IMG/VR virus record: IMGVR_UViG_3300008255_000002
Reading direction: 5' to 3' (one strand)
Source: a virus
Length of the DNA stretch: 64,000 bases
A program made the position numbers and the translations under genes. Shown piece after piece: positions 3,469-58,738 of the stretch (positions are counted from its first letter, which is position 1; each line of letters starts with the position of its first letter). The notes beneath the pieces were generated by a model that was not told the origin of the DNA, ran no database searches, and was given only the letters and a program-made list of their open reading frames with translations.

Positions 3469-4488
3469 ATGAATAATGATGAAATTGAATTAAACGTCTC
3501 TCGTATTATTACGGGGGACGTTATTATTTTATGGAATAATGAAGAACTATTAATTAAAAAACCTGATCGTATCATTAAATATCGTGCCGAGATTTTATAT
3601 CAAAACAAACTTAATGATGCTAAAAATCATGGTTTTTGGGATGAAGAAGAATTATTGGAATTTATGGTTGATTCTGATTTATGGAATAATGAAAATGAAA
3701 AAATATTAAATAAAATAAATAGTGATATACCAGATTTTAAAATCAAATTATATGAAAATTACTATAAAGAAGAATCCAAACAATCAATAAAAAAAATAAT
3801 TTTTTCTGCTGTATCCAAACAAAAAGAGTATTTGATTAAAAGGCATTCATATGATCATTTAACCGATAGAGGTTATGCGCTTACCGCAAAAAACAGATTT
3901 TTAATATCAAATTGCGTGTATGATATATTAGGAAATAAAATTACTCGTGGATTAGATATAGATCAATTATATTATTTATATAGTAAGGTTTTATTAGGGG
4001 ATTCTGATATTAGAACTGTTGCAAAATCTGATATTTGGAAAAATATTTGGAATAATAGAAAGTGTTCTAGTAGTTTGTTTGGCGGTGACGTTGTTGATAT
4101 GACAGATGAACAAAAAATGTTAGCTAGTTGGTCATCTTTTTATGATTCTATACAAGAACACCCTGAAAAACCATCAGATCAAATTATTTATGATGACGAT
4201 GCTTTTGATGGGTGGTTATTAAAACAGCGCAAAGATAAAGAAGTTAATGATTGTAAAAAAGATATTGAAGGATTGATTGATAAAAAAATAGCGAATGCAC
4301 AAGAGGTATTTATTCCTCTAAATAAAGCTGATAAAAAATTTATTAATTCTATGAATTCGGATAGAGCTAAAAAAATTAAAGAAAAACGATTTCAAGCAAT
4401 TAACGATAAAGGAGTCTTAAATCATATAGATTTACCTGATGTTAAACGAGAAGTTCAAATGCAAGCAAATAGGATGAACAATGGATAA
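3469..4488 (+). CDS. Putative tail assembly chaperone-like protein
   Basis: 339 aa, helical and charged, lies between tail tube and TMP. Confidence 0.45.
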   Translation: MNNDEIELNVSRIITGDVIILWNNEELLIKKPDRIIKYRAEILYQNKLNDAKNHGFWDEEELLEFMVDSDLWNNENEKILNKINSDIPDFKIKLYENYYKEESKQSIKKIIFSAVSKQKEYLIKRHSYDHLTDRGYALTAKNRFLISNCVYDILGNKITRGLDIDQLYYLYSKVLLGDSDIRTVAKSDIWKNIWNNRKCSSSLFGGDVVDMTDEQKMLASWSSFYDSIQEHPEKPSDQIIYDDDAFDGWLLKQRKDKEVNDCKKDIEGLIDKKIANAQEVFIPLNKADKKFINSMNSDRAKKIKEKRFQAINDKGVLNHIDLPDVKREVQMQANRMNNG

Positions 4489-4810
4489 AAGTGATCAAAT
4501 CAGAGAAGAACTAAAACAGATGATCAATAAGGCTATTTTAACTGTTGGTGTTGGTGAAATAGCAGAAATAGAATCGTTTGTTGGGTTTTTATGGGGTCAA
4601 AATAAACATATTGATCAATTAAATCAAGAAGAATTTGAATGTAGAAAGGAGTGGGAAATAATTAGGAAAAATTTCTTTGATAAGATGAACGATCTAATAA
4701 AAAGATTGGATAAAAAAATAGATTCTTTAGAATTTGAAGAAAGAAAATATACATATATCTTTTATAACAAGAAAAATAATGGGATCAATAAGGAAAGGAT
4801 CAGAAAATGA
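4481..4810 (+). CDS. Hypothetical protein
   Basis: 109-aa ORF overlapping both neighbours. Confidence 0.6.
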   Translation: MDKSDQIREELKQMINKAILTVGVGEIAEIESFVGFLWGQNKHIDQLNQEEFECRKEWEIIRKNFFDKMNDLIKRLDKKIDSLEFEERKYTYIFYNKKNNGINKERIRK

Positions 4811-36423: not shown

Positions 36424-36691
36424 TATTTAAAGCCTCTTTTGCAATTTCTGTAGCATAAAAACCGATATCATCCCAAAAATATCGTCCCTGTAATTCAATG
36501 ATTTTTTCTAAAGCTTCACGATATCGTTTCTTTTCTTCGACTTCTGGTAGTTTTACAAAAAAGTCCCTTTTTTCTTCTGTTGGTATACAACGAAACCTGT
36601 AATCGCATTCCAAACAATTACCGTATCCACACGCACAACAGGTTGTATCAACTTCCTTCTGACATCGTGGACAATTCATTTTCCATCCCAT
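36413..36691 (-). CDS. Cys-rich hypothetical protein
   Basis: CPRC...CCACGYGNCLEC. Confidence 0.55.
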   Translation of the reverse strand: MGWKMNCPRCQKEVDTTCCACGYGNCLECDYRFRCIPTEEKRDFFVKLPEVEEKKRYREALEKIIELQGRYFWDDIGFYATEIAKEALNNEL

Positions 36692-37403
36692 AATCTTCCT
36701 CTATAATATTCTGATAAGCTTTGTCGCCAAATAGCTCTTTAGCTTTTCGATTGTAGGCTAAAGCCGCTTCCTTTTCTGATTCAAAAGTTCCGACTCTAAT
36801 CTGTTTTTTATTATATTGTATTCTAGCCATCCATTTATTTAATCTTTTGTCTCGTAAAACCCCCATATATCTAGAGCTAAAGTTCTTCCTGCTAATATTT
36901 CTAATCTGCTCTAATTGAGTAACACATCGGCAATTTGATGATTCGTAATTACCATTAGAATCTTTTCTGTCAATAGTTAATTGATCATTATATCCATTAT
37001 TTAATGCCCAATCTCTAAAAGATTCATAAGATTTGTTCCATTCGTCACAAACACGAACACCTTTTTTCCCATAGTATTTGTATACAGAATCATTTGGATT
37101 ATTACATCTCTTTTTCATCTGTTTCCAAATACCATAAAGTCTTGTTTCGCTTTCTCCGTGAGTTTTTTCGCCAAAAGAATGACCATATCTCTCTCTTGGA
37201 TAGCATCCACAACTAAAAACCCTATTTTTTAATAAATCGTATATACTGTTCGCTTTGGCTTTTGTTATATCTCCATTAGCACATTCGCACAACACCATAA
37301 CGGATGGATTTTTCCCTCTAATAAAAACTTCTGATACTACTTTTACCCTATTAAATTCCCTGCCTATATAAAACTCATTTTTATATTTGCCATTATAACT
37401 CAT
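36648..37403 (-). CDS. HNH homing endonuclease with C-terminal AP2 domain
   Basis: SCGC, RLYGIWKQMKKRC, TIDRKDSNGNYESSNCR, SRYMGV...WMARI...GTFESEKEAALAYN. Confidence 0.9.
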   Translation of the reverse strand: MSYNGKYKNEFYIGREFNRVKVVSEVFIRGKNPSVMVLCECANGDITKAKANSIYDLLKNRVFSCGCYPRERYGHSFGEKTHGESETRLYGIWKQMKKRCNNPNDSVYKYYGKKGVRVCDEWNKSYESFRDWALNNGYNDQLTIDRKDSNGNYESSNCRCVTQLEQIRNISRKNFSSRYMGVLRDKRLNKWMARIQYNKKQIRVGTFESEKEAALAYNRKAKELFGDKAYQNIIEEDYGMENELSTMSEGS

Positions 37404-38955: not shown

Positions 38956-39167
38956 TTTCTCGATTTATTATAAATAGATATTGGGTAATAGATTGTATAA
39001 AAAACAATTGCTGTAAACATTGTTATTGGTGACACTAACCAAAAAAGAAGATAATCCATAATTGGTTCTTCGTCAAATAATTTTTCTCTTTTTGATTTGA
39101 TATATTGGGAAATTGTTATGTAACCAAAAACAATATAAGATGTTATTAGATATATAGTTATAATCAT
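38952..39167 (-). CDS. Small membrane protein
   Basis: Two hydrophobic segments in 71 aa. Confidence 0.55.
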   Translation of the reverse strand: MIITIYLITSYIVFGYITISQYIKSKREKLFDEEPIMDYLLFWLVSPITMFTAIVFYTIYYPISIYNKSRN

Positions 39168-39412
39168 TGTTCACAAACCACAAAAGGACAGTTTTCAAAA
39201 GTCCACAAACTATATATATTTGATCTTGGTGGCTTACACTCTAAAATATTAATAATCCAATACTCTCCAAAATTTAACGACCCTGCACTAGAGCATTGTT
39301 TATAATCGTCTTGTAACATCATTTTGCGCGACTTATAAACGATTATATCTCCCTTAACTAAATCTTTTGCGAGTTTAATTTTATACATTATTTCCCCTAA
39401 CCAAATCAACAA
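39164..39412 (-). CDS. Hypothetical protein
   Basis: Short ORF in operon tiling. Confidence 0.5.
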   Translation of the reverse strand: MLIWLGEIMYKIKLAKDLVKGDIIVYKSRKMMLQDDYKQCSSAGSLNFGEYWIINILECKPPRSNIYSLWTFENCPFVVCEQ

Positions 39413-40060
39413 TTTTCTTAAGTTCTTTTATTTTACAAATCTTATAAGGGTCTTTGTCTTTATAATCATGTTTCATATAATTACTAATAATACAGAGTAA
39501 TGAATTAACTCTATTAGGTGTAAGATCGAAAACTTCTGCAACATCTTTTTTAAATAATTCTTGTTTTTCATACATCTCTGTCATATATTTTCTATATGGA
39601 GTAGTGTCTTTATCAAGGTTTACATTATAATAACCATCATTAATTCTACAAACCAATCCTGCATAATCTATTTTTTTTTTGGTGGAAGCCCAAAGTTTGT
39701 TGTGCATCCTTGGAAAAACATATTATATGGATCTTTTGATGTTAAATCTAATAACCAATTAAATACACAATTATTTATATTTAATTGTGCTACTCTATAA
39801 TTCATATCTTTATCGAGCACAACTATATTATCTTTAATTCGTGATTGACCGATTTATATACATTCTTAGCTAGACGTATAACCAATACCGTTTTGTTTCC
39901 ATAGACAAGTAATTTTGTCGCCATATTCCATATAGGAGATAATAAAAAAAGTACAACACGAAGTATCATTTCTCTATTTTCTTTATGTGGTTGTAAAAAA
40001 AGAGGATGTATTCTTATTATAAGTAATAATATATCTGAATTTATCATTTTTTTGTTTCAC
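39381..40060 (-). pseudogene. Fragmented hypothetical gene(s)
   Basis: Overlapping open stretches switch frame, one at a T10 run (39671-39680). Confidence 0.35.
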
Positions 40061-40177
40061 CAAAAAGGATCGCTAACTTTGTTTGATTTTACTCTGATTT
40101 TATAAATTAATATGTTTATTAAAAACCATATCAGAATATATCCACAAATCGGAACATTTTGTAAATATGATATAAAA

Positions 40178-41194
40178 TCATTCATAAAATTCATCTCTTA
40201 ATTGAATAATGTTCCTATCTTGTAGATAACTTCTATCCCGTTCCTTTAGAAACCCATAAAATTTATTTTCTAGTGGCGTCTGGAATGATCCGGTTCTTAT
40301 CATATGTGGTTGTCCCTTTTGTAATCGTTCTAACGCGCCACGCATACGTTTCCATGTGTTATAATATGGGGTTTTTAGTTTGAATTGGAATCCTTCGTAA
40401 TCTTCAACAACAAATCCTTCATGGGGGAAATTTGGATTTTCTGAATTATCATTTTGAACATCATTGAGAAATTTTTCAAAATAATCCCAAGACGCAAAAC
40501 TATATGGTTGTTGTTTACATTCAAATTTTAAATGCGATGATATTGTTTTTAATTCTTTATATTCTACTTTTTCAAATTTTTCTGTTCTGCAAATTGCATC
40601 AAGTAATACTAATTTTGGTTCATCATGTTTAATAATATGTGGATCATTTTTAGGATCAATTACCTCAAAGACCAAACTTAAATTTCTATCTTTAAGTATA
40701 TGTTTAATTTGTGATGTGTGAGTCTTATATAATTGATCTTCAAACCACTCAACATAATCACTTTCATTAGTAGCTTTTGTACAAACAAAAAGATCGTTCT
40801 TTTCCCTATTATATCCAACAATCCCCAGATACCCATTATACTTTTCGTATACAGATACAGGGAATTTAATATTTTGCTTTAGGGAAGATAATTGTGTTTC
40901 GGGACGCTCACCATAATTGAAAAATTTCTCATATGACCGCGCAACAATTTCACCAGTCACCACATTAACGAATAATCCGCGAGCACGAATTGTATTTTCA
41001 TCCCAATTCTTTTTTGTGAATGCTTCGCGCGTAAAGTTGAATGATGATATATTTCCCCCTAATTGACGCTCTTTTATATATTTACTACTGTGTAGTTGTT
41101 CGATTAGAGGAATATTAGAATTAATGATTTGTTTCTTTTCTGGCAATGGTCTATATGTAGTGTTTGGTATCTCGATACAATTAAACTTGAGCAT
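40178..41194 (-). CDS. RNA ligase, T4 Rnl1-like nucleotidyltransferase domain
   Basis: RARGLF, YEKFFN, motif I EKYNG, VFEVI, EGFVV, FKLK. Confidence 0.9.
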   Translation of the reverse strand: MLKFNCIEIPNTTYRPLPEKKQIINSNIPLIEQLHSSKYIKERQLGGNISSFNFTREAFTKKNWDENTIRARGLFVNVVTGEIVARSYEKFFNYGERPETQLSSLKQNIKFPVSVYEKYNGYLGIVGYNREKNDLFVCTKATNESDYVEWFEDQLYKTHTSQIKHILKDRNLSLVFEVIDPKNDPHIIKHDEPKLVLLDAICRTEKFEKVEYKELKTISSHLKFECKQQPYSFASWDYFEKFLNDVQNDNSENPNFPHEGFVVEDYEGFQFKLKTPYYNTWKRMRGALERLQKGQPHMIRTGSFQTPLENKFYGFLKERDRSYLQDRNIIQLRDEFYE

Positions 41195-41444
41195 TTTTAT
41201 CTCTATAAATGAATATTACAGTTGCGTTTTCATCTGTTATTTTTTCTTTATTATTCCCTATTTTAACGCTACCTTGTTTAATAAGGGTTTTAGCTTGTGT
41301 TTTACTTTGAGCAAAATCTATATGTACCATAACGTCATATAGTTTCATCTCTACACCAATAATTTTACCATTTAAAACTTCATTTTCAAATTCTGGGTCG
41401 GATGGATCTACATCATCACTATGAATTGTTGCAACATGATTCAT
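41181..41444 (-). CDS. Stand-alone S4 RNA-binding domain protein
   Basis: LYDVMVHIDFAQSKTQAKTLIKQGSVKIGNNKEKITD matches the S4 pattern L...L...G.A.S..EAR.LI..G.V.ING..I.D. Confidence 0.75.
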   Translation of the reverse strand: MNHVATIHSDDVDPSDPEFENEVLNGKIIGVEMKLYDVMVHIDFAQSKTQAKTLIKQGSVKIGNNKEKITDENATVIFIYRDKNAQV

Positions 41445-42591
41445 TATAAATCTCTAATATCCTTAAATTTCCACCAAATTCTACTTGACCATCAAGATTA
41501 AAGAACCCCGAATTCACCTGTAGTGGTAGATGGTTAGGGTTTCTATGTCCTACTACACTATAGTGGTTTTTCGGCATTGTTTCGTGCCAAATTTTCGCGC
41601 ACTGGTCAACTTCTTCATAGGAACCAACCCCCTTAACTAACTGTTCTGTTGCGATAGCTAATAAATTTTCGGGAAGTGTTGGTAATCCTCCATGAGTCGC
41701 CAAAAAATAATTTTCGTGAAATTTAAAATAGCAAAGTTGCGCAAATCTTCTGGTCCATTCGCGAAGATCGCTTTTATTAAATTTTTTCAGTTTCTCGGTG
41801 GTATTTTTTTTAAATTCACCACTAAAGATTTCTTTTTCTTGGTTGTTCGCGTATAAATATGTCCACTGGTCATGATTGCCTAAAACCATACATACGTTAG
41901 ATTTATTATAAATTGATAGTGCGAATTCAACACATTGTTCTTCTTGTAATCCACGATCTACCCAATCACCCAAAAAGATATAGAAGTAATTTTCATTAAA
42001 TGGATTTTGTGTGAAATATTCATTAAGAGGTTCCCAACAACCATGAATATCTCCAATTAGAACAACCTTTTCATATTTAGATAAATCTCTTGGTTCATAT
42101 TTAAATGTTTCGTAAAACTCAGATGGTTTAATCGTTTTACACCAATTGGGCGGTTTTTGAGTCGCGAAGCGACTATACATATTATCAATTACATTTTCCG
42201 GCACAACCTTATATGATGGTGTACGATTTTTATTGCGACTTTTAGTGACTTCTATCGACACATCAGAAAAATCAATGCAATATGCACGATAACGATATTT
42301 TTCAACAAGAGTTTTATATTTACTGAAATCTTTGGTTTTTGAGTGGGTTGCATCTACAAAAATTAATTCGCCCCGCTTCATCCTTTCCTCTAACACACTA
42401 AATAATGTTTTCCATACAGAATTATCATTTTTTTGAGATATACCAAATTTTCCATCAACTTGCATAATTGGGGGTTGTGTAAGTAATCGGATATCATCAG
42501 CACATATTGTATATTCAGACAGGTTGTTATCTTTAATCCAGGTTGATTTTCCGCAACCCGGACTTCCGCGAAGTATATATATAACTCTCAT
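41419..42591 (-). CDS. Polynucleotide kinase-phosphatase (P-loop kinase + metallophosphoesterase)
   Basis: GSPGCGKS, VDATH; GDIHG, GDWVDRG, GNHD, THGG, VGH. Confidence 0.9.
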   Translation of the reverse strand: MRVIYILRGSPGCGKSTWIKDNNLSEYTICADDIRLLTQPPIMQVDGKFGISQKNDNSVWKTLFSVLEERMKRGELIFVDATHSKTKDFSKYKTLVEKYRYRAYCIDFSDVSIEVTKSRNKNRTPSYKVVPENVIDNMYSRFATQKPPNWCKTIKPSEFYETFKYEPRDLSKYEKVVLIGDIHGCWEPLNEYFTQNPFNENYFYIFLGDWVDRGLQEEQCVEFALSIYNKSNVCMVLGNHDQWTYLYANNQEKEIFSGEFKKNTTEKLKKFNKSDLREWTRRFAQLCYFKFHENYFLATHGGLPTLPENLLAIATEQLVKGVGSYEEVDQCAKIWHETMPKNHYSVVGHRNPNHLPLQVNSGFFNLDGQVEFGGNLRILEIYNESCCNNS

Positions 42592-42731
42592 TTTCTAGCC
42601 CATTCAATAACAGAGATTATTAGTGCTCCAAACGCAAATCCAACCATCATCATATAGATTATAATATTAAGTTTGATAAAGATACCAGTAATTAAACCAA
42701 TGATAATAGCCAAAAGTATTATATCAAGCAT
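42588..42731 (-). CDS. Small two-TM membrane protein (47 aa, below ORF-track cut-off)
   Basis: MLDIILLAIIIGLITGIFIKLNIIIYMMMVGFAFGALIISVIEWARK*; ATGA overlap with the kinase gene. Confidence 0.55.
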   Translation of the reverse strand: MLDIILLAIIIGLITGIFIKLNIIIYMMMVGFAFGALIISVIEWARK

Positions 42732-43173
42732 CGCCAAATTCCTTTTTTAATCGTTTATATTCTGCGAGCTTGTTCTTTTTTTGAAGTTCTAATTGTTTTT
42801 TCTCATATTCTAACTCTTCTTCTGTGTGTTCTCGATATCCGAAAATCGCAAGTTCTTTTCCATCTCCATATTGTTCATCTACAGATTCTAATACAAATTT
42901 ATGAAATATCAATTCTTTTGTGTGTGGTTTTCCTATCGAATGACTTTCCCAAAAACCTCCAGGTGGTATAGGACGCCATATAACTTTAATTGGTTTACCG
43001 ATATTAGTTTGGTATTTATTATATATATCTTGAATCTTTTTAAGAACCTCGGATAATTCCCCCTCAAAATCATATATCTGAAATCTTTCAATTTCTTGTC
43101 TACAAAGTCGCAGTTTATCCATTTTTTCTCCTAAGAAAATCAAATTTGTCATCAGATTTCCAGCTTTCAGCAT
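42724..43173 (-). CDS. Hypothetical protein
   Basis: ORF in operon tiling; true start likely MDKLRL. Confidence 0.55.
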   Translation of the reverse strand: MLKAGNLMTNLIFLGEKMDKLRLCRQEIERFQIYDFEGELSEVLKKIQDIYNKYQTNIGKPIKVIWRPIPPGGFWESHSIGKPHTKELIFHKFVLESVDEQYGDGKELAIFGYREHTEEELEYEKKQLELQKKNKLAEYKRLKKEFGDA

Positions 43174-43594
43174 AATACGGTAAATCGCTATTTGGCATTA
43201 CAAGCAAACGAATTTTTGCACCATCTTTATCGCCAACATATCCGATAAAATCATCTATTAGAATATCAATATCTAGTTGTTTACACAACTCTGCTTTACA
43301 GGCTTCGCTATATTTTTCGTAATCCGCACTATAAACATTATCAGGATCTACTAGTATTGGACATAAATAGTTGCTTCGCAACATTTCTACAATTTTATCT
43401 TTTGGGTGCATATCACTAATTACATATATTGAAACTAATCCGCTATGTTCTAATGCTCTGATAAGTGTGTAAAATTCTTTAGGATATTTAGATAAAACTC
43501 CACCAACATCAATAGCCGTATTACAATTACAAAGAACTAAATCTAATTCAAAAATACAATGATGTTTCACATCTAATATTTCATAAATATCCAT
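43115..43594 (-). CDS. HAD-superfamily hydrolase (nucleotidase-like)
   Basis: IDVGGVL, YVIS, K...C...DILIDD. Confidence 0.6.
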   Translation of the reverse strand: MDIYEILDVKHHCIFELDLVLCNCNTAIDVGGVLSKYPKEFYTLIRALEHSGLVSIYVISDMHPKDKIVEMLRSNYLCPILVDPDNVYSADYEKYSEACKAELCKQLDIDILIDDFIGYVGDKDGAKIRLLVMPNSDLPYYAESWKSDDKFDFLRRKNG

Positions 43595-44835
43595 TAACTT
43601 ATTTCCTCTGTATCAACATATTGATCGTCTGCTTTAGCCAAATCTTCCATAACAAGAAAATTAAAATTCTTATGTTTGTATGTTTCAAATTTTGATGTGT
43701 GATTTCTTCTAACACAACATCCCTCTAAATAATGGTTTCCCATAGGATCTGGACCATCACCCAAAACCCTCACTTTTTCTAAAAGTTCTTCTGGATCACC
43801 ATTATATATAAAACGATCAAGTTCAACAGGTGTTTTAACTCCTAATTCATCAGCACGTTTTACAACATCATCCCAAGGTAAATCTATTTGTATTCCTTCT
43901 GGATTAACATACACAACCCTATATAATAGAACCTTAAATTCACCCTCGCGACAACCATAATTATAAATCATTTTAGATCCATATTTGGTTGTAAATTCTT
44001 TATCTTTGAGTTTGGTTGTGTCGTGCGATGGCATTATTGGGACTGGTCCGTCAAAACCCACAATCTCATAATACAAAATTTCGTTTTTATTCAGCTTCCC
44101 ATCAAAATATTCGTTGATTTTTTTTCTTAGATCATTATTAACTACCTTATTATCTTCTGTTAAAATAACATTACGACTACCACTAATAGTTTGATATGTT
44201 TGGTTAGGAAAGATATTATATAAACGATTAACGAGTTGTTTCCATTTTGGTAATTCAATATTGTGTAATACGTGTGCTGTGCGTCCTGAACTTCCGTGAG
44301 ATTTTTGAGTTATGACAAGAAAATCGCCATTTTTAAATTTATGAGGAAAGTATTTGATATTTTCCGTATCTATATGTTTTCTAAAGTAAATTGTTTCTCT
44401 GCGAACTTTTATTTTTTTGGAGTTTTCTGTCATGTTTTGACGTGTTGCTTTAGCGTAATATTTTTCACAAATACGAATATTGTTAACAACATCTCCGCGA
44501 AATCCCACATCAAGACTATCTGTTGTTTCTTTTCCTACTATTTTTTCCAAATATGATATAGGACAAACCAAACCCTCCGATATCGCTCCACGGAATTTTT
44601 GTGCCCTAATTCTTAGATTTTGTTCCAAATATCCGCCAAGTGGTCGCGTTAGTTTATTGGTTTCGGCAAACTCTTTTGAAACACAACCGTCTACAGGAAA
44701 AAATAAAACTTTATCCCCTTCTTTCGCATCCAACCCAACCACACATTGAGATCCAAGAACCTCACATAGTTGAATTCTGTCGGCGTTTGGATGAGCGTAT
44801 ACTTTTTTGATCGTTGTAAGATAGAAATAATACAT
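43594..44835 (-). CDS. RNA ligase, DRB0094/Rnl2-like, with N-terminal tRNA-binding OB fold
   Basis: HPNADRIQL, RGAISEGL, motif I QKSHGS, YYEIVG, EGCCVR, YKHKN. Confidence 0.85.
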   Translation of the reverse strand: MYYFYLTTIKKVYAHPNADRIQLCEVLGSQCVVGLDAKEGDKVLFFPVDGCVSKEFAETNKLTRPLGGYLEQNLRIRAQKFRGAISEGLVCPISYLEKIVGKETTDSLDVGFRGDVVNNIRICEKYYAKATRQNMTENSKKIKVRRETIYFRKHIDTENIKYFPHKFKNGDFLVITQKSHGSSGRTAHVLHNIELPKWKQLVNRLYNIFPNQTYQTISGSRNVILTEDNKVVNNDLRKKINEYFDGKLNKNEILYYEIVGFDGPVPIMPSHDTTKLKDKEFTTKYGSKMIYNYGCREGEFKVLLYRVVYVNPEGIQIDLPWDDVVKRADELGVKTPVELDRFIYNGDPEELLEKVRVLGDGPDPMGNHYLEGCCVRRNHTSKFETYKHKNFNFLVMEDLAKADDQYVDTEEIS

Positions 44836-44836
44836 A

Positions 44837-45122
44837 TTAATCCTCTATAATATTAATATATGCGTACTCACCAAATAATTCTTTTGTTTTTTCTTTATTA
44901 TCATCAAAAAGAATTTCTTCTTTATTTGTAAATCTAAATAAATAATAATTACCAAGGTTGAGAAGTCTTCCATCTCCAACTTTTACAGAAGTTTTTCGGT
45001 ATGATATATCGTGCCAACCTAATTGTTTTAGTTTTTCCTTAACGTCTAATATTGCTAATTTTAGAATTTCTTCATTTGTTATAATAGCATCTATATAAAA
45101 AAAAATCTATTCCTTTTTTCAT
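44837..45122 (-). pseudogene. ~94-aa hypothetical gene broken by one extra base in a 9-nt homopolymer
   Basis: Removing one base from the A9 run at 45097-45105 gives MKKGIDFFYIDAIITNEEILKL...KELFGEYAYINIIED*. Confidence 0.6.
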
Positions 45123-45198
45123 CGCATGGTTTATATTAAATTCAATAACGTTAATTATTTTTTCTTTTTCTATTTTAATTAATTGTAATTTTTTCTGA

Positions 45199-45444
45199 TT
45201 AAATTGTTCTGGAGTCATCATTTTTAAATTCCAATTTACGAAGTATTTCAAGTTCTTTCTTTAAATCTTCCAACCAATGAGATAGATCACATGTCATTCT
45301 ATTACAACTTTCTCTACCAACCAATTTAAGATGTTCATGAATAATACTATCCGCCTCATCTCGTTGTTCTTCTAACCAAAAATAATAAGTCTTTCCTTTA
45401 GAAACTTGTCTGCGCAATTCTTTACAATTTTCACAAGGTTTCAT
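45199..45444 (-). CDS. Hypothetical protein
   Basis: 81 aa, CENC. Confidence 0.55.
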   Translation of the reverse strand: MKPCENCKELRRQVSKGKTYYFWLEEQRDEADSIIHEHLKLVGRESCNRMTCDLSHWLEDLKKELEILRKLEFKNDDSRTI

Positions 45445-45898
45445 TACACTTCCTTATATATGAAACTGTTTCTAATACTGTGTTTACCGCCACACACAAT
45501 TTATTTTCCCTAACAAACCTTATTGCAATTCCCATAGCTTTATTGTGAACTTCACAATTTTGTATCTGTTCATATTCTGATCCGTCAGAATTTAATAATC
45601 TTCCTAAAAACTCTTCGTCAGTTAGTTCATTAGGGAGGAATCCTTGTAAGAATTCATTTTCTTGTTTTATATCTCCGCGAATCTCATGTCTCATTTTACA
45701 CAATTTATATGTTTCGTTATTTGATTTAACAAGCTTTTTAATTACTTTGATAATCCATTCGTCGTTTACCTTTTTGCCGCGACCTTCCTCTAACTGAACC
45801 TGTCCTATAATATATCTTAATATATCTCGTTGATATACTGGTAATAATCCCTTATTCGCCTCACTTAATAAATTAGTCAGTTGTGTTTTTAGATTCAT
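45431..45898 (-). CDS. GatB/YqeY-domain protein
   Basis: RDILRYIIGQVQLEE...DEWIIKVIKKLVKS..ET...ENEFLQGFLPNELTDEE...AMG. Confidence 0.7.
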   Translation of the reverse strand: MNLKTQLTNLLSEANKGLLPVYQRDILRYIIGQVQLEEGRGKKVNDEWIIKVIKKLVKSNNETYKLCKMRHEIRGDIKQENEFLQGFLPNELTDEEFLGRLLNSDGSEYEQIQNCEVHNKAMGIAIRFVRENKLCVAVNTVLETVSYIRKCNETL

Positions 45899-46760
45899 TT
45901 TCAAATTCCAATGGGGTTTCAAGGTGCGTGCAATTTACATTTCTTGTTAAATAATTAATAACGGGGTATAGACCTATTATATTACCAGAAAGATATTTTT
46001 GATTTAATTCTTCTACTGTATATGAATGATATAATCCGTGTTTGTTTCCCCAACCAGCGACATCATTAAGAGGGCACGCTACTAAACATTGTTTTTTTGG
46101 CGCAAAAACATTTGGTGGTAATTCTTTAACACGATTACTTAGCGATGCCTCTAAACTGTTTGGATTTTCCCACCATGTAGTTTCATAAAAATCTCTAATT
46201 AGATCGCTTCTAAATATATGTCCATCCACACTAAATATATATCCATAAGTTGAATGCTGAGGATATGGATAGTGGTTCCATTTAATAAATCCTCCACAAT
46301 CGACATATTCTAATGATGGAAGTTTATCATTTAAGTAATATGTCTGTATTGTTGTATTTAACCCAACTCGTAATGACACACAACAACTATCATCGTAATT
46401 TAATAAATCGTATATTTGATCTAACGTAAAATGTCTATATATAGGATTAAAGAAAACACAATCATCAGTCATAAAGCATGTTAATTGGTGCGAGTTTTTT
46501 TCTTCTGAGATTTCGTCTAATAAAGTTTCTCTAAAATTAAATCCATATTGGCTCTCATATCTAATTTTAAAGTTAGGGTATCCATAATCTTCTTTTCCAC
46601 TTTTGTATTGCAACCTCTTATAAGATTCAGTAAAAAAGAAATTACTCGCCTTAGTTATAATAGATATATCAAAATAATTTTTTGCATTTGTATGTATGGA
46701 TCTCAATAAGAGGTCTAATTGTGACGCTCTATCTTTTGAAAAGATTACTAGTTTGATCAT
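45873..46760 (-). CDS. GT-A-type glycosyltransferase
   Basis: IFSKDRASQLDLLLRSI, FMTDD, SVDGHIF, PNSLE. Confidence 0.7.
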   Translation of the reverse strand: MIKLVIFSKDRASQLDLLLRSIHTNAKNYFDISIITKASNFFFTESYKRLQYKSGKEDYGYPNFKIRYESQYGFNFRETLLDEISEEKNSHQLTCFMTDDCVFFNPIYRHFTLDQIYDLLNYDDSCCVSLRVGLNTTIQTYYLNDKLPSLEYVDCGGFIKWNHYPYPQHSTYGYIFSVDGHIFRSDLIRDFYETTWWENPNSLEASLSNRVKELPPNVFAPKKQCLVACPLNDVAGWGNKHGLYHSYTVEELNQKYLSGNIIGLYPVINYLTRNVNCTHLETPLEFENESKNTTD

Positions 46761-57034: not shown

Positions 57035-57236
57035 TTAAAAAAATCCTAATTGTTAAAATGATACCCAAAATAATAGTTGAAAATATAAAAAAACTACAAA
57101 ATAGATTAAAAAGCATTAATTTGGTAATAAAACTAGTTAATTTATCACTTTTGTCTGAAAAAATATCATATAAAATAAAAGTTGTTATGCATAATATATT
57201 GATACATATATAACTTCTTAGTATTAATAACTCCAT
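57015..57236 (-). CDS. Small membrane protein
   Basis: Two hydrophobic segments, TAATG coupling to guaC. Confidence 0.5.
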   Translation of the reverse strand: MELLILRSYICINILCITTFILYDIFSDKSDKLTSFITKLMLFNLFCSFFIFSTIILGIILTIRIFLIENNII

Positions 57237-58738
57237 TATCTTACCCTTATAAAATTAGCATTATTACGTAATTCTATTAAATTTTTAGAATTTGTATATG
57301 TGCATGTAGACCTTAGCCCTCCAAGAAAATCTTGAACAACATCATTAATAGATCCTTTATAATCTACTAAACTAACCTTCCCTTCAGATGCTCTATAAAA
57401 CTGTTGATTATTATACTTTTTCATAGCTTCTGAACTTGCCATTCCGTAAATTTGATGATATTTTTTATGACCATTCTCATCATATATCCATTCTCCATCA
57501 CATTCTTCGCACCCTCCAAACATAGATCCAATCATTATAAAATCTACCCCAGCCGCAAAGGCTTTAGCGGCATCTCCAGAAGTTTTAATCCCACCATCTC
57601 CACACACATATATATTATGTTCGTGTGCTAATTGAACACAATCAATAATTGTTGATAATTGTGGAACACCTACCCCTGTAACTTTTCTGGTTTGACATTG
57701 AGAACCTGGACCAATACCAACCTTAATAATTTTAATACCTAATTTTATTAAGTCTGAAAAACCGCTTGGGGTACAAACATTACCAACCATTAAATGTGTA
57801 TTTGGTAGTTTTTTTCTAAGTATTTTAACAACATCTCGAAGTTTTCGTATGTATCCATTAGCCACATCAACACATAATAATCTAATAGGGATTTGTTTAT
57901 TTATTTCGTATATTTTTTCTAAATCTAAATCATTTATACCGCAACTAAGAAATATATTATTTGTTATATCTTTTTTTTCTTTCATAAATTTTACTACTTT
58001 ATCTATATCATAATATTTATGCAGACATGTCATCATATTATGATTTTTTGCTAATACTTCTCCTATCTTAAGAGTGCCGCAGAAATCCATATTTGACGCT
58101 ATAATAGGAATAGCATTTATCTCTAAATCATCAAATTTTCTATCTAATACAACTTGAGACCTACTGTCTATATTGCTTAAAATAGGTTCTATTAATACAT
58201 CATCAAAATCAATTTTTTTATTCATAATTCTGTTTTGGTAAAATGAAATTTTTGAGATATGTTCCAAAAATTCTGATTGATTACTAGACCATTTAAATTT
58301 ATTACATTTTCCACAACATGTTACAATATTACTTTTTATATATCCAATATCATTCTTAACTCTATCTATTCCATTATGAATAAAAGAAGATATTTTTTGT
58401 GATGGCAAATTCCCACAATAATAACAATGCTGTTGTGTTAACTCGTAAAATTCTTCTTTTGTTAAATCGAATTCTCTATTACGTTTTAATGCATTTTTTT
58501 TATATGTATTATACATACAATAAAAACCGCCAGGATATTCATCGACAATTCTTCTAATACATCCACAACTTTTCTTGGTTTTTATTTTATGAACTGGAAG
58601 TGGTTTTGTTAAATTATCATAATATCCACATTTACATATCCATAAATGTCTTCCTTTTTCTTTTTTACCTACATATTCTACAACCTTAGGTTTGCCGAAT
58701 TTTTTTTCTAATAAACCTTTTTTATACTTTATCGGCAT
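57236..58738 (-). CDS. guaC: GMP reductase with in-frame N-terminal HNH endonuclease-like domain
   Basis: From Met at 58225: DFDDVLI, ASNMD, DVANGY, KVGIGPGSQCQTR, DGG, YGMAS, YRASEGK; upstream 171 aa has SCGC, CYYCG, GIDR..N..GY...N.V.CC..CN. Confidence 0.85.
   Translation of the reverse strand: MPIKYKKGLLEKKFGKPKVVEYVGKKEKGRHLWICKCGYYDNLTKPLPVHKIKTKKSCGCIRRIVDEYPGGFYCMYNTYKKNALKRNREFDLTKEEFYELTQQHCYYCGNLPSQKISSFIHNGIDRVKNDIGYIKSNIVTCCGKCNKFKWSSNQSEFLEHISKISFYQNRIMNKKIDFDDVLIEPILSNIDSRSQVVLDRKFDDLEINAIPIIASNMDFCGTLKIGEVLAKNHNMMTCLHKYYDIDKVVKFMKEKKDITNNIFLSCGINDLDLEKIYEINKQIPIRLLCVDVANGYIRKLRDVVKILRKKLPNTHLMVGNVCTPSGFSDLIKLGIKIIKVGIGPGSQCQTRKVTGVGVPQLSTIIDCVQLAHEHNIYVCGDGGIKTSGDAAKAFAAGVDFIMIGSMFGGCEECDGEWIYDENGHKKYHQIYGMASSEAMKKYNNQQFYRASEGKVSLVDYKGSINDVVQDFLGGLRSTCTYTNSKNLIELRNNANFIRVR

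Follow-up and report, generated by a model that had tools for sequence, protein, structure and literature searches.

The window analysed here, a stretch of 64,000 nucleotides (nt), lies within the 138-kb IMG/VR record IMGVR_UViG_3300008255_000002 of an uncultured phage (~30% guanine plus cytosine) and contains three overlapping open reading frames (ORFs), coding for a kinase-phosphatase, a stand-alone S4-domain protein and an RNA ligase (Table 1). The placement of the S4 gene between the two repair genes is real and, among the related loci examined, it is seen in this phage only. An initial annotation, made from the sequence without database searches, had described the three ORFs as overlapping, and this is borne out at both junctions.

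The kinase-phosphatase combines an N-terminal P-loop polynucleotide-kinase-like domain (AAA_33, E 3e-13) with a calcineurin-like binuclear metallophosphoesterase of the lambda-phosphatase type (Metallophos, E 8e-19), for which lambda PPase 1g5b is the nearest solved structure. It matches positions 1-381 (E 5e-116) of the phrog_8238 profile, which is 737 positions long and covers kinase, phosphatase and ligase modules. The ligase matches positions 420-730 of the same profile (E 4e-89) and Pfam RNA_lig_T4_1 (PF09511; E 9e-39, 134 bits against a cut-off of 28.3), with the fungal-type transfer RNA (tRNA) ligases 9qw7 (E 1e-7) and 6n0v as the nearest solved chains. The flanking genes had been annotated as a heal-and-seal RNA repair pair, with which these domain and profile matches agree. 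Both enzymes look active, since all residues invariant among 20 homologs of each are kept, including the P-loop, GDxHG, GDxxDRG and GNH motifs of the kinase-phosphatase and motifs I (Lys118-x-Asn-Gly; Lys118, Asn120 and Gly121), IV (Glu259 and Gly260) and V (Lys272 and Lys274) of the ligase. Their facing termini match as well, the C-terminus of the kinase-phosphatase agreeing with the consensus of 20 stand-alone kinase-phosphatases and the N-terminus of the ligase with that of 20 stand-alone ligases. The 338-aa (amino acid) ligase was not among the matches of the protein-collection search, unlike both neighbours; other assemblies call the same gene, and its absence is probably a matter of indexing.

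The middle ORF had been annotated as S4-like, which holds by hidden Markov model, by profile and by fold. Its 87-aa product passes the Pfam cut-offs marginally, with 23.7 bits against S4 (PF01479; cut-off 22.8; residues 35-69) and 28.3 bits against SYY_C-terminal (PF22421; cut-off 27), and five homologs reach 27.5-37.9 bits against Pfam S4. The best NCBIfam match is to positions 337-378 of tyrS, while the profile of the S4 family matches residues 334-387 of the tyrosyl-tRNA synthetase (TyrRS) 6byq (E 2e-6), with ribosomal uS4 and Imp3 ranking lower. A scan of genome contigs with the conserved motif of the family recovered nothing but true TyrRS C-termini, from Izimaplasma, with 41% identity over 32 residues. 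The AlphaFold2 (AF2) model, with a predicted local distance difference test (pLDDT) score of 85.7, has the S4 fold, composed of an alpha-L motif and a small beta-sheet. Each of the 19 best VIA structure matches of this model (Z 3.6-6.4) is either an S4-domain protein or a ribosome entry; uS4, TlyA, TyrRS, Imp3, RluF, RqcP, Hsp15 and YlmH are among them, and the best superimpose with a root-mean-square deviation of 1.3-2.8 Å over 45-52 residues. RqcP (7aqc, Z 3.8) and Hsp15 (1dm9, Z 3.7) score below uS4, TlyA and TyrRS, where differences of ~1 Z are to be read as ties, and a Foldseek comparison of the model with the PDB gave only weak S4 matches (E >= 0.05). The S4 fold alone does not tell binders of tRNA, ribosomal RNA (rRNA) and messenger RNA apart. 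The best sequence and profile matches, with the same fold, are to the C-terminal S4-like domain of bacterial TyrRS (PF22421; 6byq, 6hb5 and 1jh3), from which the window protein differs in being phage-encoded and in standing alone, with neither the catalytic class I domain nor the anticodon-binding body. The middle ORF encodes the TyrRS C-terminal domain as a complete, free-standing protein. The protein most likely binds structured RNA, and tRNA is the best guess for its target because of the TyrRS ancestry.

The same three-ORF arrangement is present in contigs from three other samples, one of which is a 154-kb assembly, with 0, 0 and 1 base differences over 2.0-2.8 kb, and is no assembly accident. 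Sequencing slips are unlikely because these three further assemblies repeat the arrangement and the homopolymers at the junctions do not exceed runs of T3 and A5. The three ORFs occupy frames 0, +1 and +2, with a 32-nt segment open in both frames at each of the two junctions, and upstream of each ATG the reading frame is stopped within 3-7 codons. Both internal start codons are preceded by a TAGAGA motif (located 7-12 nt 5' of the ATG in the case of the ligase), and TAGAGG is the motif found before many genes of the phage. The kinase-phosphatase, S4 and ligase genes accordingly read as separate putative cistrons, each with its own candidate ribosome-binding motif. As the three genes overlap, they would be transcribed together and are probably translationally coupled, and co-expression of the S4 gene with the repair enzymes is therefore expected. 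The closest homolog of the S4 protein, P0002, is encoded by a free-standing 85-aa gene with intergenic spacers and its product aligns with the 87-aa protein starting at Met1 and ending no more than two residues short of the C-terminus. A phmmer search of 1.84 billion representatives found no long protein containing the S4 module, positions 39000-45500 have no Rfam match at E <= 1, intron families included, and the RNA folds no better than shuffled sequences (z = -0.77). Given the free-standing homolog, the start motifs, the repeat assemblies and the lack of a long S4 protein, intron or structured RNA in these searches, the middle ORF is a real separate gene.

Homologs in which kinase, phosphatase and ligase form one polypeptide exist, as the initial annotation had stated. 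They include the fused phrog_8238 proteins of Twort-like, SPbeta-like, Brochothrix A9 and Fusobacterium phages, which have the three catalytic modules arranged as in the window, at 35-45% identity to the window proteins, and among the inspected records single genes of 721-738 aa occur in SPbetaL2, phiKSUM and Fnu1/FNU3. When aligned with these, the end of the kinase-phosphatase and the start of the ligase, which had been held to be contiguous in fused homologs, do abut across a short variable linker. The window differs in having two polypeptides with an unrelated third gene between them, and no fused locus with an S4 gene was seen. The one-polypeptide form fails here, as the three ORFs lie in three frames and do so in the other assemblies. 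Many homologs stand alone, namely kinase-phosphatases of 380-400 aa and ligases of 340-360 aa, and in some loci a kinase-phosphatase occurs without an adjacent ligase. The best match of the kinase-phosphatase, P0008 (50% identity), is encoded in locus L016, where kinase-phosphatase and ligase are separate genes that overlap directly in an ATGA, nothing being inserted between them. The S4 insert need not have caused a split, since this nearest relative already has two genes, and the earlier view that the S4 gene had divided a fused repair gene probably does not describe what happened. The L016 kinase-phosphatase stops two codons past a conserved LRILEI motif, and comparison of the DNA places the S4 start (ATGAAT) of the window where L016 has its ligase start (ATGAAC). 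The last nine residues of the window kinase-phosphatase form a non-conserved tail that reads through the start of the S4 gene. Compared with L016 and its ATGA-type junction, the window lacks one A at this point, and the missing A would explain the run-on into the S4 gene, as far as a 50%-identical relative can serve as a guide. Other arrangements occur, with the ligase followed by the kinase as separate genes on the bacterial contig L013. On the gut-metagenome phage contig L012 (4330-4450) there is a 29-nt overlap between the frames of kinase-phosphatase and ligase, and the ligase is called from a TTG; this junction looks more like a fused gene broken by a frameshift than like two properly separate genes.

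Relatives of the S4 protein are few, the exhaustive phmmer search yielding only five (85-111 aa, 39-43% identity), all of which align from residue 1 to the end. The four with readable DNA lie among unrelated small phage genes, the relative P0006 being known from gene calls only, and the neighbouring genes show no homology to one another or to any part of the window phage. The kinase-phosphatase and ligase profiles had no match in the ~48 kb around seven S4-family loci, while both positive controls, the window and L016, were matched. Rnl1 was not found in two IMG/VR records with distant S4 relatives, both of which are possibly fragments. Conversely, tblastn matched the kinase-phosphatase in 144 of 50,697 GenBank phage records, and searches with the window S4 protein and two of its relatives had no match in any of the 50,697. 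The S4 gene is also absent from the kinase-ligase loci L012, L013, L016 and L017. Searches for related loci with single proteins had no matches, nor did an S4 alignment search of metagenome contigs, and the same alignment recovered only two distant loci, L014 and L015, among viral contigs. In the high-GC viral contig L014, a longer ORF (4216-4767) is S4-like at its end; its preceding part looks like the helical region that precedes the TyrRS C-terminal domain, and the ORF may be an intermediate in the phage capture of this domain. The ESM Atlas holds several clusters (52-158 members) of SYY_C-terminal/S4 proteins of 90-123 aa, mostly viral, and stand-alone TyrRS C-terminal domains are therefore a recurrent, uncharacterised class of phage proteins.

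Taken together, it is on balance probable that a wandering, TyrRS-derived gene for an RNA-binding protein landed at the junction of a heal-and-seal operon that already consisted of two genes, and is co-expressed with it. The Pnkp-like kinase and metallophosphatase would restore 5'-phosphate and 3'-OH ends, which the Rnl1/Trl1-type ligase would then seal. One intact small S4 gene would have been acquired exactly where the stop of one repair gene meets the start of the other, and its product would be an accessory factor working in trans and expressed alongside the repair enzymes, without being a conserved subunit of the repair machine. The search for a target-site duplication around the insert found only short flanking repeats at chance level, and no mobility mechanism can be named for this reason. 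A role of the S4 protein in RNA repair is possible, and the link is one of guilt by association drawn from a single genome. Several observations weigh against a chance landing. The S4 gene is packed between the two repair genes with zero spare nucleotides, and the genes for an Rnl5-type ligase and a YqeY-like protein belong to the same 5.7-kb cluster, which is how a functional link would look. ARAGORN found no tRNA or tmRNA genes in the 138-kb genome, despite two RNA ligases and a kinase-phosphatase, and the phage may therefore depend on keeping the tRNAs of its host intact. The co-occurrence of S4 and repair genes was, furthermore, sampled in only about six S4-family contexts, mostly on short contigs.

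The insertion of a small gene between two genes that are united elsewhere has a counterpart in Aeromonas phage Aeh1, where nrdA is split by the free-standing mobile gene mobE, a case of "genes in pieces". There, too, a small foreign gene lies between halves that other phages encode as a single gene; the window insert differs in having no nuclease domain, and its nearest relative is already two genes. If the S4 gene landed here by chance, the locus is a clean example of a new gene slotted into a translationally coupled junction with both neighbours left undisturbed.

The initial annotation had instead proposed a three-part complex in which the S4 protein is an adaptor dedicated to substrate targeting, delivering damaged tRNA, rRNA or stalled ribosomes to the enzymes, and had named S4 co-occurrence at homologous loci as a check. 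This appears unlikely. The tight overlap with the genes of both enzymes, the tRNA binding suggested by the TyrRS C-terminal ancestry and the RNA-repair and tRNA flavour of the surrounding cluster would fit an adaptor, but the S4 gene is missing at every related kinase-ligase locus examined, including the 144 GenBank phages and L016, where its absence was to count against an adaptor. Its homologs are not found near repair genes, and the fused and two-gene relatives evidently work without it. A complex prediction for the S4 protein with the kinase-phosphatase and the ligase scored 0.00, a result that carries no weight either way. Phages are known to counter the tRNA-cutting nucleases of their hosts by heal-and-seal RNA repair, and little is known of how the repair enzymes find their substrates. 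An RNA-binding module that derives from a tRNA synthetase and is expressed within a repair operon would readily suggest itself as a factor for targeting or protection.

The known repair systems resemble the window in part. The heal-and-seal logic directed against anticodon nucleases is shared with Pnkp and Rnl1 of phage T4, whose ligase belongs to the same Pfam family (PF09511); the T4 phosphatase is, however, a HAD/DxDxT enzyme, in contrast to the metallophosphoesterase of the window. The T4 Pnkp and Rnl1 genes are not adjacent, and we know of no RNA-binding accessory gene in such a role in T4. Bacterial Pnkp/Hen1 systems, such as that of Clostridium thermocellum Pnkp, share the domain order, with the P-loop kinase in front and the lambda-phosphatase-like metallophosphoesterase behind it, and to our knowledge neither they nor the Pnkp1-Rnl-Hen1 system have an S4 partner. 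The window kinase-phosphatase scores only 48.3 bits against the bacterial Pnkp model TIGR04075, for which the cut-off is 750, and the Rnl1/Trl1-type ligase of the window is unlike those of the bacterial systems. Hen1 (PF12623/Hen1_L) had no match in the 138-kb record in a search run without a positive control. A separate ligase polypeptide is likewise encoded beside Pnkp1 in the Pnkp1-Rnl-Hen1 system of Capnocytophaga, which is a precedent for a multi-protein repair complex (PMC4411300). S4 domains in repair contexts are not mentioned in the jumbo-phage overview PMC7824862.

The S4 protein could also work on tRNA or translation without involving the repair enzymes, in which case its place in the operon would provide only early co-expression. 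It might then protect tRNA-Tyr, or other tRNAs with a long variable arm, from a nuclease of the host, serve as a decoy, or modulate the TyrRS or ribosomes of the host. Other phages carry members of the family in arrays of small ORFs that resemble early genes, with no repair genes present, and the S4 domain is TyrRS-derived. Host defences that destroy tRNA-Tyr are known, and phages counter these with tRNAs (PMC11555353 and PMC12673091). Against this, uS4, TlyA, TyrRS, RluF, RqcP and Hsp15 all match the S4 fold within the same range of Z-scores, and such an independent role seems improbable. The locus also points to a wider, uncharacterised class of small proteins that phages encode and that consist of the TyrRS C-terminal domain. 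A more far-reaching suggestion, which we consider quite unlikely, is that free-standing proteins of this kind are an unrecognised phage counter-defence class acting on tRNA, one of them having been recruited here to the repair operon, where it would either pass cleaved tRNAs with a long variable arm, tRNA-Tyr for example, on to the enzymes or shield such tRNAs from host tRNA nucleases. Finally, that the three ORFs are one polypeptide with S4 in its linker, produced by two +1 frameshifts (programmed, or due to sequencing errors), or that the S4 segment is an 87-codon intron or bypassed element, would suit the stepping frames and the doubly open segments but is exceedingly improbable in view of the three near-identical assemblies, the short homopolymers, the end-to-end match to a free-standing homolog, the lack of a long S4-containing protein in the exhaustive search, and the Rfam and RNA folding results.

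Table 1. Genes and gene overlaps of the RNA repair cluster, with positions in the 64,000-nt window
Feature	Position	Strand	Size and matches
Kinase/metallophosphatase gene	41419..42591	-	390 aa; AAA_33 + Metallophos
Stand-alone S4 gene	41181..41444	-	87 aa; Pfam S4 + SYY_C-terminal
Rnl1/Trl1-type ATP-dependent RNA ligase gene	40178..41194	-	338 aa; RNA_lig_T4_1
Overlap of kinase-phosphatase stop and S4 start	41419..41444	-	26 nt (read from the sequence)
Overlap of S4 stop and ligase start	41181..41194	-	14 nt (read from the sequence)
Second RNA ligase, Rnl5/DRB0094 type, with N-terminal OB domain	43594..44835	-	Pfam PHA02142 OB, phrog_968
YqeY-like protein	45431..45922	-	Pfam YqeY, 29.1 bits (cut-off 27); phrog_1460, E 2e-15

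The Rnl5-type ligase and the YqeY-like gene are located <4.5 kb upstream of the kinase-phosphatase gene. The second ligase also matches TIGR02306 (E 9e-13) and the Naegleria RNA ligase 5cot (E 2e-5). The DnaE-type polymerase of the phage has only ~25% identity to anything in the GenBank phages.

Three paralogous AP2-domain proteins are encoded by the phage, one in the window (36648-37403, minus strand) and two at C1:2392-3087 and C1:48740-49426. A homolog with 54% identity is encoded in L016, adjoining its repair genes, and these paralogs may represent a family of mobile endonuclease-like genes. A 500-aa ORF on the minus strand (57236-58738) has an HNH/endonuclease VII-like region (aa 72-165) ahead of a dehydrogenase (phrog_9582; aa 169-499), and may be a homing-endonuclease fusion to, or insertion into, a metabolic gene.

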